From Candidatus Nanohalobium sp. (GTDB lineage: Archaea > Nanohalarchaeota > Nanosalinia > Nanosalinales > Nanosalinaceae), in NCBI GenBank assembly GCA_042217545.1, contig JBDGSM010000073.1, positions 1-11,525 of the forward strand: a stretch of DNA of 11,525 bases. The letters are read 5' to 3'. Shown here one piece after another: positions 1,430-11,398 of this stretch. The notes under the pieces are model-generated. The model saw only the letters and a list, made by a program, of their open reading frames with translations. It did no database searches and had not been told where the DNA came from. Each line of letters starts with the position of its first letter. Within the stretch, counting starts at the first letter, position 1. A program made the translations under genes and the position numbers.

Positions 1430-1545
1430 GTCCGGCAACGTCCTGTGCATCCCGCCGTCAGGCAGTACGACACAGATCGATGGAGGACTTAACTTCCGTG
1501 TTCGGGATGGGTACGGGTGTTTCCCCTCCTCTTTGGTCGCCGGTA
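1430..1545 (-). rRNA. rrf: 5S rRNA, stand-alone
   Basis: Reverse complement of 1543-1432: CCGGCGACCAAAGAGGAGGGGAAACACCCGTACCCATCCCGAACACGGAAGTTAAGTCCTCCATCGATCTGTGTCGTACTGCCTGACGGCGGGATGCACAGGACGTTGCCGG. It contains the conserved CCCATCCCGAACACGGAAGTTAAG, helix I CCGGCGAC/GTTGCCGG and helix II GGAGG/CCTCC. Ends approximate. Confidence 0.95.
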
Positions 1546-5231: not shown

Positions 5232-5480
5232 TCAGGAATAGATGCCTTCAGGTCGTATAATCGCTGCAAGAAGAGATAGAAGAAAGTTTACCGTCCGGAA
5301 GACCAACGCCAGGACCAGAAGGAAAAGAGTTATCAGCCGGGCCTGGAACCAGGCAAGCACTTTTTTGTCCGTGGAAGGCCTTCCAACCGAGGACCTCTCC
5401 CTCTTCTTTCCGCCGGATACCGTGTCTTCGTAAAGTATGAACCCTTTCTCCGTGTACCTGACCTCGGCCTTTCCAGACAT
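5232..5480 (-). CDS. Small hypothetical membrane protein (82 aa)
   Basis: Basic N-terminus followed by a long hydrophobic C-terminal stretch (LITLFLLVLALVFRTVNFLLSLLAAII). Co-oriented with its neighbours. Confidence 0.55.
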   Translation of the reverse strand: MSGKAEVRYTEKGFILYEDTVSGGKKRERSSVGRPSTDKKVLAWFQARLITLFLLVLALVFRTVNFLLSLLAAIIRPEGIYS

Positions 5481-5581
5481 ACAGGAAGATTACTTCCGAG
5501 ACCTACTTGAGCACTTTTACACAGCGAAAATCACTTGACAGGACAACAATACCTCTGAAGCAGATCGACAGTTCTAAAACC

Positions 5582-5600
5582 AAAAAAACACAGGAAAAAA
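5582..5600 (-). terminator. Oligo-T terminator of the tRNA-Tyr transcription unit
   Basis: TTTTTTCCTGTGTTTTTTT on the minus strand directly after the duplicated tRNA 3' end. No T-run follows the tRNA proper. Confidence 0.55.
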
Positions 5601-5622
5601 TCCCGACTCCAGGATTTGAACC
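5601..5622 (-). repeat. Exact 22-bp direct repeat of the tRNA-Tyr 3' end
   Basis: TCCCGACTCCAGGATTTGAACC at 5601-5622 is identical to 5677-5698. It is adjacent to the hairpin GAAGCTC-GCCTCCGG-GAGCTTC (5624-5645). Confidence 0.95.
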
Positions 5623-5676
5623 CGAAGCTCGCCTCCGGGAGCTTCTTACATCAAATGCTGGCGAGGGAACGAAGTT

Positions 5677-5750
5677 TCCCGACTCCAGGATTTGAACCTG
5701 GGACAAGCCGCTCTACAGGCGGCCGCTCTGCCAGCCTGAGCTAAGTCGGG
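5677..5750 (-). tRNA. tRNA-Tyr (GTA), intronless, CCA not encoded
   Basis: CCCGACTTAGCTCAGGCTGGCAGAGCGGCCGCCTGTAGAGCGGCTTGTCCCAGGTTCAAATCCTGGAGTCGGGA. Acceptor CCCGACT/AGTCGGG, D stem GCTC/GAGC, anticodon stem GCCGC/GCGGC with loop CTGTAGA, T arm CCAGG-TTCAAAT-CCTGG. C1:G72, A73 and a short variable loop are archaeal/eukaryal Tyr identity elements. Confidence 0.97.
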
Positions 5751-5797
5751 GTTGGTGATACGGGTTCTTAGCTCTTTGAGAAGCCTTCTGGCTTCGA

Positions 5798-5822
5798 CCT
5801 GAGCTAAGTTGGGGAGTGATAT
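5798..5822 (-). repeat. Imperfect direct repeat of the tRNA-Tyr 5' end plus leader
   Basis: CCTGAGCTAAGTTGGGG (5798-5814) matches CCTGAGCTAAGTCGGGG (5735-5751) at 16/17 positions, and both are followed within a few nt by GTGATA. Part of the nested hairpin CTTAGCTC-N5-GAAGCC-TTCT-GGCTTC-N5-GAGCTAAG (5767-5808). Confidence 0.85.
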
Positions 5823-5946
5823 GTAGTTGATCTGTCCGGGTTTTGAGGCCTTGAAGCAGGCCTTGTAACCGATATCCGTGGATGGGGTACGAAGATTTAA
5901 GAGGGTTACCGGAAGCTTGTGGAAGGTTTCTCCGGGGGAAAGAATG

Positions 5947-7302
5947 TTATGGGCGGAAGTTTGTCTCTACTTTGTCTGATTTCTTGATGACTTCGTCTTT
6001 TTCCTTCAGTACTGCCTCCTGGAGTTCTGCTCCGCCTTCTACTTCGACTTTAGGCCTTATTACGTACTGGAGGATTCTCTGGTCGCCCGGTTCAAGGTCT
6101 TCAAGGCCCCAGACCAGTTTTGTACCGTCATTTGTTCTTCTGACTGTTGGTGCGCCCATTTCAAAGTCTTTGTCTACTTCTGCTATGTCCGGTATGAAGT
6201 CTTCTACCGTGGCATGTGTGAGTGTTCTGTCGGAGATATTTTCAATTTCTATGGATACTTTGAGACCTTCTGGATCGTCTTCTACTGTTTTCCTTATTTC
6301 TACCGTGTTGCTGAGTTTTTTGAGGGCTGCGAGCGCCACTATTATTCCTATGAGTGCTATTCCTGGCATCCAGTAGTTTGTGGTCCTGGTTAGGGTAAAT
6401 TCTTCTCCAGGTTCCAGGCTTGTCTTCCAGTAGTATACCTGCTGCGGCCCGTTCTTGTCTGCTGAGTCCGGTGACTTGCTGAATCCTGTTATCGGCGCCA
6501 GGTAGCTGGCAACCGTCCTGTTGACAGTGTAGTTTTCCTTGGCGTTTCCCTCGTTCCGGACGCTGATGGAGCCTCTGTACGTTAGAATGTTGTCTTGAGT
6601 ATTTTCCTTTACGTTGATGTCGGTTACCTTGCCCACTGAGAAGTTCCTTGTTTCTCTGCGGACTTCACTTCCTCCAAGCTGGAGAGAGGCATTCAGACCG
6701 TATATTCCCGGCTTCTCCCCCTTCTTGACAGGCAGTGTGAACTCCAGTTCTCTTGTTCCTCCCGGAAGGATGGGAGAACTCTTCTCCGTGGTGCTGAAGT
6801 TCTTGTAGCTGAAAACTGCCCTGTAGTTCTTCAGTACGTTAGATGATATGCTTCTGATCTTCATAGATCCTTTCAAACTGTCGCCGGGCATGTAGCTGGT
6901 GTTCTCCAGTGAGAAGTCTTCAAGTATGAGTTTTCTTGACCTTTTCACGTGGAACGAACTTTTTAATTTCTTCGATTCGTTTATTCCGGAGGCCTTGACA
7001 TATATACTGAATGAGTACGTGTTATCTACAGCGTATTTTCCTGGAGTAACTGTTATATCGAAGTTGTGGACTTCTCCCGGTTTCAGCGTCTTTGATTCTT
7101 CAGTGTAGATCCAGGAAGGCTTTGGGGAGAAAACTCCTATGCTGTATCCGACTTCCTGGTTGTAGGTATTGTTTACCTTTACCTGTATCAGTGCAGGACT
7201 GTCCGGAGAGGCTGTGGGATCAGGTCTGTGAACGGTGGCCTGGAATGCGGAGACCGAACCGATCAGGAGAAGAAATACTATCAGGCCTGAAAGCTTCTTC
7301 AT
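5947..7302 (-). CDS. Membrane-anchored surface protein with Ig-like beta domains (CARDB/COG1361/DUF11-like), 451 aa
   Basis: Signal peptide MKKLSGLIVFLLLIGSVSA, repeated L.PGE / V.V.N Ig-fold signatures, about 8 N-glycosylation sequons, TM WMPGIALIGIIVALAAL, and a C-terminal DUF11-like domain (V.D.IP...LVWGLEDLEPGDQRILQY). TTAAATA box at 7326-7332. Confidence 0.8.
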   Translation of the reverse strand: MKKLSGLIVFLLLIGSVSAFQATVHRPDPTASPDSPALIQVKVNNTYNQEVGYSIGVFSPKPSWIYTEESKTLKPGEVHNFDITVTPGKYAVDNTYSFSIYVKASGINESKKLKSSFHVKRSRKLILEDFSLENTSYMPGDSLKGSMKIRSISSNVLKNYRAVFSYKNFSTTEKSSPILPGGTRELEFTLPVKKGEKPGIYGLNASLQLGGSEVRRETRNFSVGKVTDINVKENTQDNILTYRGSISVRNEGNAKENYTVNRTVASYLAPITGFSKSPDSADKNGPQQVYYWKTSLEPGEEFTLTRTTNYWMPGIALIGIIVALAALKKLSNTVEIRKTVEDDPEGLKVSIEIENISDRTLTHATVEDFIPDIAEVDKDFEMGAPTVRRTNDGTKLVWGLEDLEPGDQRILQYVIRPKVEVEGGAELQEAVLKEKDEVIKKSDKVETNFRP

Positions 7303-11146: not shown

Positions 11147-11270
11147 AAAACTTTCAGAAGTTTTGGCAGGTCGCGGATTCGAAACTCGGTAGAGTTTCTG
11201 CATCTCGCAGATTTTTCTAAAAAATCTGCTTCAAACAGCTTTTCAGCTGTGTCCAGAAAATCCTACGGAT
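11147..11270. repeat. Cluster of short inverted repeats
   Basis: AAAACTT-TCAG-AAGTTTT (11147-11164), GAAACTC-GGTA-GAGTTTC (11181-11198), GCAGATTTTT-CTA-AAAAATCTGC (11207-11229), ACAGCT-TTTC-AGCTGT (11235-11250), ATCC-TAC-GGAT (11260-11270). Confidence 0.75.
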
Positions 11271-11398
11271 CTTCGATGGATTTGAACCGGAATCAAGGCA
11301 AATGCAATTGGAAGTTTCCGGAATTGATTTAGAATAGTTTCATCAACCGTTAGATTTATTACTTTAGTGCTACTATAGAATTCATAGGTGAAACAATT

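Follow-up and report, generated by a model that had tools for sequence, protein, structure and literature searches.

Hairpin modules carrying copies of tRNA ends flank the tRNA-Tyr gene and many other tRNA genes in Nanohaloarchaeota

The tRNA-Tyr locus

The stretch of DNA analysed here, referred to as the window, comprises 11.5 kb (11,525 nucleotides, nt) of contig JBDGSM010000073.1 from a Candidatus Nanohalobium genome (GCA_042217545.1, called G000 below). It contains an intact tRNA-Tyr gene that is flanked on both sides by copies of its own ends, each of which adjoins a hairpin. We call a hairpin together with its adjoining copies a module. The locus is read on the minus strand and has the following features, listed 5′ to 3′ on that strand.

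5895..5900, minus strand: TTAAAT, candidate TATA box in a block of about 35 nt that resembles a promoter (putative function)
5798..5813, minus strand: sense copy E of tRNA nt 1-16 (CCCAACTTAGCTCAGG), with A for G4, one mismatch within the first 15 nt
5780..5795, minus strand: core hairpin of the 5′ module, GAAGCC-AGAA-GGCTTC, closing bases C..T (sequence and predicted fold)
5767..5774, minus strand: antisense copy E′ (GAGCTAAG), predicted to pair with CTTAGCTC of copy E (5808-5801)
5751..5766, minus strand: linker of 16 nt from the 5′ module to the tRNA
5677..5750, minus strand: intact tRNA-Tyr (GTA), 74 nt, CCA not encoded (ARAGORN; Rfam tRNA, 62.3 bits)
5669..5676, minus strand: loop aacttcgt from the tRNA 3′ end to the antisense copy (sequence and predicted fold)
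5651..5668, minus strand: imperfect antisense copy S′ of the tRNA 3′ end (TCCCTCGCCAGCATTTGA), 14 of 19 aligned positions
5624..5645, minus strand: core hairpin of the 3′ module, GAAGCTC-CCGGAGGC-GAGCTTC, closing bases A..G, 'type 1' (sequence and predicted fold)
5601..5622, minus strand: sense copy S, 22 nt, identical to tRNA nt 52-73 (from the T loop to the discriminator)
5595..5600, minus strand: T6 run directly after copy S, a likely archaeal terminator

Archaeal transcription terminates at oligo-T, and the function of the last feature is assigned on that basis. The spacer between the tRNA and its 3′ copy is 54 nt long (5676-5623) and contains the loop, then S′, then the core hairpin; the ATTTGA within S′ is the conserved anti-T-loop motif of the module family described below. 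The block aaccctcttaaat.ttcgtac..atccacg is kept 5′ of the 5′ module in SG9, the complete genome of a member of the same genus (locus L009). An initial annotation of the window had listed the TATA box, both end copies, the hairpins, the tRNA, the spacer and the oligo-T, all of which are confirmed base for base. It had overlooked the antisense copy S′ in the spacer and the genome-wide and order-wide reach of the arrangement.

The 65-nt stretch with the 5′ module has a minimum free energy of -20.9 kcal/mol (z -5.4), and the z-scores are -2.5 for the 79-nt stretch with the 3′ module and -4.0 for the whole 221-nt locus. In the predicted folds each module can fold up by itself without disturbing the cloverleaf, giving self-contained hairpins and no clear switch. 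In the global minimum-energy fold of the 221 nt the 5′ acceptor strand pairs with the distal copy, a predicted pairing that is not decisive, given the sequence identity.

An assembly artefact as the source of the repeat structure, which the initial annotation had named as grounds for refutation, can be set aside with near certainty. Contigs of this assembly and of related metagenome-assembled genomes (MAGs) do often end at these repeats. However, Logan contigs from two runs (possibly those of the source samples) match 5450-5705 and 5677-6000 without a single difference, so that one contig holds the copy, the spacer and the proximal 3′ end and another holds the tRNA and the 5′ module. Both repeat junctions are crossed in this way, and the same layout is present in the closed genomes SG9 and G015, the latter a single contig.

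Copies of tRNA ends at many tRNA genes

Copies of a tRNA 3′ end were defined as 13 nt with at most one mismatch, no more than 300 nt downstream of the tRNA itself. Such copies follow 8 of the 33 usable tRNAs in G000 and 9 of the 37 in SG9, and copies of the 5′ end precede 1/33 and 3/37 tRNAs, respectively. As controls for the 3′ copies, the upstream flanks of the same tRNAs and the reverse complement gave 0, and the flanks of other tRNAs gave 1 of 956 and 0 of 1216 pairs. Chance is excluded as the source of the tRNA-end copies. 

A strict pattern for the 3′ module (GATTTGAW, 8-45 nt, YTTC, 0-8 nt, GTTCRAATC) matches 34 of 70 Nanohaloarchaeota genomes, and the reversed pattern matches 0. By family, for three families, the matches are in 22/49, 5/10 and 6/8 genomes. 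The phylum-level set consists of the same 70 genomes as the order-level set, and the reach past the phylum rests on a search of 185,579 species genomes. In that search the type-1 hairpin followed by a T loop was found in 36 stretches, all of them labelled nanohaloarchaeal or just archaeal MAGs. The modules are a Nanohaloarchaeota repeat system at many tRNA genes and are not peculiar to tRNA-Tyr.

Structure of the 3′ modules

The anatomy of the 3′ modules was compared in 38 distinct modules from the loci examined, with stem features scored on 37. All 38 lie on the strand of the tRNA, 2-30 nt (median 19) past its 3′ end, and they follow tRNAs for Ser, Leu, Pro, Arg, Tyr, Thr, Phe, Met, Trp, Ala, Lys, Gly and Glu. 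Their parts come in a constant order: ATTTGAW, which is antisense to the T loop, then a conserved GAAR..YTTC hairpin, then the copy from T loop to discriminator. The stem starts with GAAA or GAAG in 28/37 modules and the closing bases are A..G in 30/37. Over 20 nt (the T loop and 12 nt more of the module's own tRNA) the copy is exact in 32/38, with one mismatch in 5/38 and two in 1/38. Simple modules have spacers of 47-56 nt and exact copies of 15-24 nt.

The stretch before ATTTGAW shows weak yet significant complementarity to the acceptor/T-stem strand of the same tRNA (mean score 7.68 vs 6.67), and 0 of 2000 permutations reach the observed value. A run of at least five T precedes the module in 3/38 cases and lies within 30 nt after the copy in 7/38; since three modules stand behind such a run, not all modules need to be transcribed together with the tRNA.

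Two simple origins of the modules were considered and rejected. Inspection of the sequences by eye shows CCA after the copy in 0/38 modules, and the idea of a retro-copy of mature tRNA was therefore dropped. A tandem pseudo-tRNA was rejected as well: the Rfam model does not see the module as a tRNA, and the same hairpin occurs at different tRNAs.

5′ modules and two-fold symmetry

The 5′ side was studied in 15 modules, from 19 related tRNA-Tyr loci examined; a 5′ module is present in 12/19 of these loci, one of them in a second family. The copy of nt 1-15 tracks the acceptor sequence of each species (CCCGAC, CCCGGC, CCCTCC or CCCGCC), with 0 mismatches in seven modules, 1 in six, 2 in one and 5 in one. 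All 15 are predicted to fold as a hairpin, the copy pairing in part with the antisense stretch behind it. A strict pattern for the 5′ module matched only 5/70 genomes and is too narrow to gauge the distribution.

In 12/15 cases the central stem of the 5′ module is closed by C..T, the A..G pair of the 3′ modules in reverse complement. In 9/15 a motif of the TCAAWG, TGAATG or TCGATG type comes after the stem, and its reverse complement appears by eye to resemble ATTTGA; this likeness between the 5′ and 3′ modules is a reading of the sequences and is to be taken as such. The symmetry of the closing bases together with the motif therefore suggests that both types of module, read outward from the gene end, have the same plan.

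Sharing and turnover of modules

Cores are shared between different tRNAs, genera and families. The 44-nt core of the tRNA-Tyr module in the window is identical to the core after tRNA-Ser(GGA) in another genus (L127), and the type-1 hairpin, including its loop, recurs in another family (L130), there behind tRNA-Leu(TAA). At tRNA-Tyr in G014 and at tRNA-Arg(TCT) in G000 stand nearly identical long modules of about 110 nt. The orthologous tRNA-Tyr module of SG9 differs from that of G000 in loop and spacer, and orthologous tRNA-Tyr loci at large have differing core types or no core. Both modules are absent from 5/19 tRNA-Tyr loci, judged by eye on the sequences; in the 19 loci no full integrated element was seen between the repeats.

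The sets of tRNAs with 3′ copies also differ between G000 and SG9. Tyr, Gly-TCC and Ala-CGC are common to the two; a Met copy is found in both, but the gene in G000 is split over two contigs. Arrays of 2-3 copies follow Ala-GGC, Glu-CTC and Ala-TGC in G000 and Phe in G035, and inserts nested within a copy are found at Pro-TGG and Ala-CGC in SG9. Runs of N (masked) occur in G000 at C17:16800-16970 and C17:20270-20400, inside the arrays after tRNA-Glu(CTC) and tRNA-Ala(GGC), and these two arrays are therefore not readable in full.

Two further cases concern exchange between loci. In G015, tRNA-Ser(CGA) and tRNA-Ser(TGA) (L135/L136; C1:317600-318200 and 792550-793150) are identical from the 3′ half through linker and module to the copy, with the match ending exactly at the discriminator of the copy, and conversion therefore acts there. 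At L129 (G050, C27:9700-10173) and L112, the module behind tRNA-Pro(CGG) carries as its copy a tRNA-Arg 3′ end together with the tRNA-Arg linker, and a second module elsewhere is followed by the tRNA-Pro end. This arrangement is either a module-mediated recombination or an assembly chimera at identical modules.

The wider hairpin family

Perfect GAAR..YTTC hairpins with a stem of at least 7 bp occur at about 102 sites in G000 and 81 in SG9. Twenty-four of the G000 sites fall within 300 nt on either side of a tRNA, a space that amounts to 2.4% of the genome. The other sites are mostly intergenic, and some lie inside the long canonical introns of many tRNAs. Intergenic hairpins are often paired, with a C..T hairpin, a linker and an A..G hairpin that carries a GGAGGTG ribosome-binding motif in its loop, immediately upstream of a start codon.

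Double-hairpin units of this kind are found in G000 at C26:27379-27430, C26:28061-28110, C23:31961-32010 and C7:13070-13115, where a stop codon is followed by a C..T-closed hairpin of the GAAAATC type, a linker of about 10 nt and an A..G-closed hairpin with the GGAGGTG loop, right upstream of the next start codon. The intergenic double hairpins may bear on how mRNA is processed or its translation controlled.

Direct repeats are enriched on the flanks of hairpin units: scores of at least 10 are reached by 7.0% of units vs 0.6% of controls, and scores of at least 12 by 4.4% vs 0. The top cases are nearly all tRNA ends. At one orthologous site of the two congeners that is not a tRNA (G000 C28:12016, SG9 1016079), a GAAAACC hairpin lies between direct repeats of about 28 nt (TGAC.CAAAAC...GTCCCAA), and no Rfam family matches this site at the gathering threshold.

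The motif A(A/T)CTGGTTACGC(TC) opens long canonical introns in the G000 genes for Trp (C37), Ala-TGC (C58), Glu-CTC (C17) and Thr-TGT (C29). It also occurs after N73 of tRNAs or of copies, in the Gly-TCC and Asp-GTC trailers of SG9 and at L097, L105, L119, L121 and L126; intron-like sequence is therefore found outside tRNAs too.

Other features of the window and its genome

G000 has 1.03 Mb in 82 contigs, with 49% G+C, and is 92% complete. The genes of the window encode a topoisomerase VI-B-like C-terminal domain, a DUF63 protein, a 2-hydroxyacid dehydrogenase, TFB, an RsmB/F-type methyltransferase and a uracil-DNA glycosylase. Two more features of the window are relevant to the modules.

1430-1544, minus strand: 5S rRNA gene; a TATA-like box precedes it by about 25 nt and a T5 run follows
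about 11160-11300, minus strand: orphan module array, with a T-loop piece, a double hairpin and a tRNA-Pro-like 3′ end

The 5S rRNA genes of SG9 and G015 likewise have a TATA-like box about 25 nt upstream and a T5 run, and no end copies are found at the 5S rRNA genes of G000, SG9 and G015 (3/3 genomes). In the orphan array the double hairpin GAAGATCC..GGATTTTC is followed by ..GATGCA GAAACTC..GAGTTTCG and then by AATCCGCGACCTGCCA, the tRNA-Pro-like 3′ end. Its trailer is that of the SG9 tRNA-Pro(TGG), and a tRNA upstream of the array is absent; the 5′ part of the G000 tRNA-Pro(TGG) lies at the end of another contig (C81).

Among Rfam models searched over 5300-6200 at E values up to 10, only tRNA matched, and three other hits fell well short of their gathering scores. 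RNase P RNA was detected in 14/26 relatives and, at E<=0.001, in none of the three genomes of this genus. Loss of RNase P as the cause of odd leaders is not supported, because its RNA is present in those 14 relatives. The RNase P RNA matches in this family span 306-465 nt vs a model of 288 positions and are mostly below cut-off; insertions within the RNase P RNA of the family are possible.

Origin of the modules

The anatomy, statistics and distribution of the modules, their two-fold symmetry, the sharing of cores and their turnover are established in this analysis. As to what the modules are, we tentatively prefer a palindromic repeat element, specific to this lineage, that spreads as DNA and duplicates the adjacent tRNA end in doing so; it is the best single account, short of being probable. 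The flanks of tRNA-Tyr would then be two oppositely oriented copies of one palindromic module type specific to Nanohaloarchaeota. Read outward from a gene end X, a module consists of a linker, a weak antisense copy of X with an ATTTGA-like motif at or beside its end, a core hairpin with the conserved GAAR..YTTC whose mismatched closing pair is fixed, and a sense copy of X, which begins in the T loop (3′ side) or the D loop (5′ side) and ends at the tRNA terminus. On this view the modules would be non-coding elements that come and go, nest and are exchanged as DNA, and with each gain the adjacent tRNA end would be duplicated. Our guess is that copies could be made by fold-back or backward template switching at the hairpin, aided by the hairpin foot (YTTCG) and by ATTTGA, which match the T loop (GTTCRAATC); alternatively, an enzyme might act on folded single strands. 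Template switching is favoured because of these matches and because some junctions merge at TTC. The modules would be tolerable in that they fold on themselves in the transcript and leave the cloverleaf free.

An element moving at the DNA level is favoured by the symmetry of 5′ and 3′ modules, the genome-wide hairpin family, the sharing of cores, the differences between congeners, the arrays and nests, the orphan array and the cases behind a T run. Among its alternatives the initial annotation had proposed insertions of a tiny palindromic element that targets tRNA genes, with target duplication, and this is the one favoured by the shared cores, the congener differences, the arrays and nests and the orphan array; no transposase was found, however, and the copy is bounded by the tRNA terminus, which sets it apart from a common target duplication of fixed length.

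Several observations weigh against a DNA-level element. The copy ends at the discriminator (N73) in 35/38 modules and continues at least 8 nt into the trailer in 3/38; this exact stop at the tRNA terminus is unexplained by template switching, and the copy boundaries, including the start of 5′ copies at about +1, are unexplained by any mechanism blind to structure. No mobilising enzyme fits. The Y1 transposase (PF01797) is found in 1/41 relatives and not in G000; a TnpB-type domain is found in 11/26 relatives (5 over cut-off) and a tyrosine recombinase in 15/26, none of them linked to modules. An autonomous parent element with module-like ends was not noticed, no systematic search for one having been made. 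The copies are unchanged between G000 and SG9 at Tyr (22/22), Gly-TCC (15/15) and Ala-CGC (16/16), and the hairpin stems are identical while the remaining spacer is barely alignable. At one site the Ala-CGC copy of SG9 retains the G000 state despite a change in the tRNA it belongs to. This speaks against plain gene conversion and makes selection on the copy look likelier than neutral scarring. The antisense part that is specific to the tRNA is weak. The constant strand relative to the tRNA and the 35/38 modules without a strong T run before them suit a role at the RNA level.

That role is the second-ranked explanation and is compatible with the first, as an element that spreads in DNA and a working RNA element are not mutually exclusive. 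It is possible, though we think it unlikely, that the modules are working parts of the pre-tRNA, in which leader and trailer hairpins built from end copies serve processing, stability or folding; they may, for example, form a minihelix like the acceptor/T stem that draws RNase P or tRNase Z, or the precursor of small RNAs shaped like tRNA fragments. Modules within 2-30 nt of the tRNA end and always on its strand would fit such parts, as would copy boundaries that are those of the tRNA molecule (N73; for 5′ copies about +1 to the D loop), copies and stems held constant between congeners while spacers diverged, a closing mismatch and an extra C in the type-1 3′ arm conserved across families, the stable folds (z -5.4, -2.5 and -4.0), a 5′ module kept at 12/19 tRNA-Tyr loci, and the failure to find a transposase. 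Most tRNAs, however, have no module and the sets differ between congeners, so that no module is essential for a given tRNA. A 5′ module that is the reverse complement of the 3′ module is odd for a function in RNA, and the 5′ copies carry 1-5 mismatches in 8/15 cases, A4 in the window among them, which break acceptor pairing. G-U pairs are not clearly commoner in the sense strand (27/589 vs 15/573), a test for RNA-level selection that is not decisive. Three of the 38 modules lie behind a terminator-like T run, and the orphan array exists. The initial annotation had offered a pre-tRNA with alternative folds, or one that releases small RNAs, as a possibility; the predicted folds give self-contained hairpins and no clear switch. 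We consider it rather improbable that the modules are made or used by a mechanism that reads tRNA structure and not DNA sequence, an idea that takes up the bounding of copies by +1, the D loop, the T loop and N73 without CCA. A hairpin element might integrate into the single strand of a tRNA gene folded as a cloverleaf, with cuts at the ends of the acceptor stem and in loops, as host recombinases treat folded attC or CTX-type substrates. Alternatively, transcribed modules might be precursors of gene-encoded RNAs resembling tRNA fragments, or minihelix mimics in tRNA end processing.

The copies could also have arisen with no mobile element, as by-products of replication or repair near pre-existing hairpins beside heavily transcribed tRNA genes; templated insertion, quasi-palindrome extension or slippage would create them and local gene conversion would uphold their likeness. 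Sense and antisense copies do adjoin palindromes, the 3′ arm of the hairpin (..CTTC) often merges with the TTC of the T loop (Ala-TGC, Lys-TTT and the third copy of Ala-GGC), the duplication runs at least 8 nt into the trailer in 3/38 modules, conversion is seen in the tRNA-Ser pair of G015, and no transposase was found. We nevertheless hold this to be improbable: it leaves unexplained the same cores, loops included, at different tRNAs, genera and families, the constant ATTTGAW motif with its spacing (47-56 nt in simple spacers), and the lack of end copies at the 5S rRNA genes. A direct repeat from the T loop to the 3′ end is the classic footprint of integration into tRNA genes. The modules might thus be taken for decayed attL/attR scars of tRNA-targeting integrases, or for decoy attachment (att) sites that buffer the tRNA, given the exact 22-nt direct repeat of the tRNA 3′ segment and the tyrosine recombinase genes in 15/26 relatives. 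The 54-nt spacer, however, holds a conserved hairpin and no remnant of an element, no recombinase or integrase was found in a Pfam scan of 10 open reading frames of the window, and modules are present in genomes without a PF00589 match (G008, G014). The 5′ copies, the N73 stop in 35/38 modules and the same cores at many tRNAs are not expected from scars either, which makes this explanation very improbable. The initial annotation had noted the absence of an integrase and had rightly rejected a plain att scar; the att decoys it had offered instead find no support, as no integrase is linked to the modules and decoys do not predict 5′ copies. Equally remote is the reading of the distal copies as true exons, with introns in the D loop or T loop removed by the splicing endonuclease, or as alternative 3′ ends. 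The pairing of the 5′ acceptor strand with the distal copy in the 221-nt fold would agree with it, as would the long canonical introns with the same hairpins in many G000 tRNAs and the splicing endonucleases of broad specificity in DPANN archaea (described in sections of PMC5829648). Against it, a search for the strict bulge-helix-bulge motif over 5830-5580, relaxed motifs left aside, gave 9 weak candidates of which none joins a proximal to a distal copy, the inner tRNA is complete alone, and the mismatch in the 5′ copy would weaken the acceptor stem.

In the Nanohaloarchaeota, genomes measure about 1 Mb and tRNA genes are single-copy, yet about a quarter of these genes carry modules. If the modules are selfish, they represent a compact repeat able to persist in an essential gene because it remakes the end that it displaces, which bears on the disruption of tRNA genes in archaea. 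If functional, they point to a further layer of pre-tRNA handling in DPANN archaea, and a mechanism that reads tRNA structure would, if true, be a new kind of tRNA-linked genetic system in this group. In practical terms, the modules break assemblies at tRNA genes, and they may mimic CRISPR-like arrays and confuse the annotation of tRNAs and att sites.

Comparison with known systems

The literature consulted, which included PMC5829648, PMC10266531, PMC9765267 and PMC3293823 without their supplements, gave no account of hairpin modules in Nanohaloarchaeota or of end copies beside their tRNA genes. Miniature inverted-repeat transposable elements (MITEs) are similar in being small and non-autonomous, in having inverted ends and flanking direct repeats, and in varying between relatives, and the presence of modules does differ between close relatives. 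The target duplication of a MITE is short and fixed, whereas the direct repeat of the modules is 13-24 nt long, variable and bounded by the tRNA terminus. The inverted arms of the module are partly copied from the target, and no parent element was found, with no systematic search made.

Bacterial repetitive extragenic palindromes (REPs) and the related BIME (bacterial interspersed mosaic element) and REPIN elements are mobilised by RAYT (Y1) transposases. They are generally described as non-coding imperfect palindromes of 20-50 nt with an asymmetric foot, multi-copy and extragenic, often in inverted pairs and near gene ends (see also PMC3733652). The modules resemble them as short, multi-copy, extragenic palindromes with an asymmetric foot that gives orientation, but a cognate RAYT/Y1 transposase was not found in G000 and PF01797 is limited to 1/41 relatives. 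Unlike the modules, REPs as usually described carry no copy of the end of the neighbouring gene, and the modules, unlike REPs, are enriched at tRNA genes and contain a motif complementary to the T loop.

The double-hairpin elements, repetitive hairpin-forming elements and GC clusters of mitochondria are hairpin or double-hairpin repeats that invade intergenic regions, introns and structural-RNA genes (see also PMC2800124 and PMC4478555). Small compact genomes are common to both systems; the domain of life and the sequences differ, and duplication of a tRNA end is not known from the mitochondrial elements.

Integrase att duplications and the disruption of tRNA genes by mobile elements in Caldiarchaeum (PMC3293823) likewise place a direct repeat of part of a tRNA beside an intact tRNA gene. 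The modules differ in having no element or recombinase between the repeats, a conserved hairpin spacer of about 50 nt, and 5′ and antisense copies. In Escherichia coli, the repeats downstream of tyrT reportedly contain the last nucleotides of tRNA-Tyr, so that there too the 3′ end of a tRNA-Tyr is repeated downstream of its gene. Those repeats are longer tandem units, not known to have an antisense copy or core hairpin, and they occur at one locus, whereas the modules are genome-wide.

The duplication of CRISPR repeats on spacer integration and the target duplication of casposons at tRNA 3′ ends are similar in that array inserts are bracketed by a duplicated target; a link of the modules to Cas1 was not seen, though none was tested for. 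In strain SVXNc, CRISPRFinder gave six potential CRISPR regions, one of them intact, according to sections of PMC10266531, and some of the false regions might be tRNA-end arrays. The inserts of the modules belong to one conserved hairpin family and are not captured spacers.

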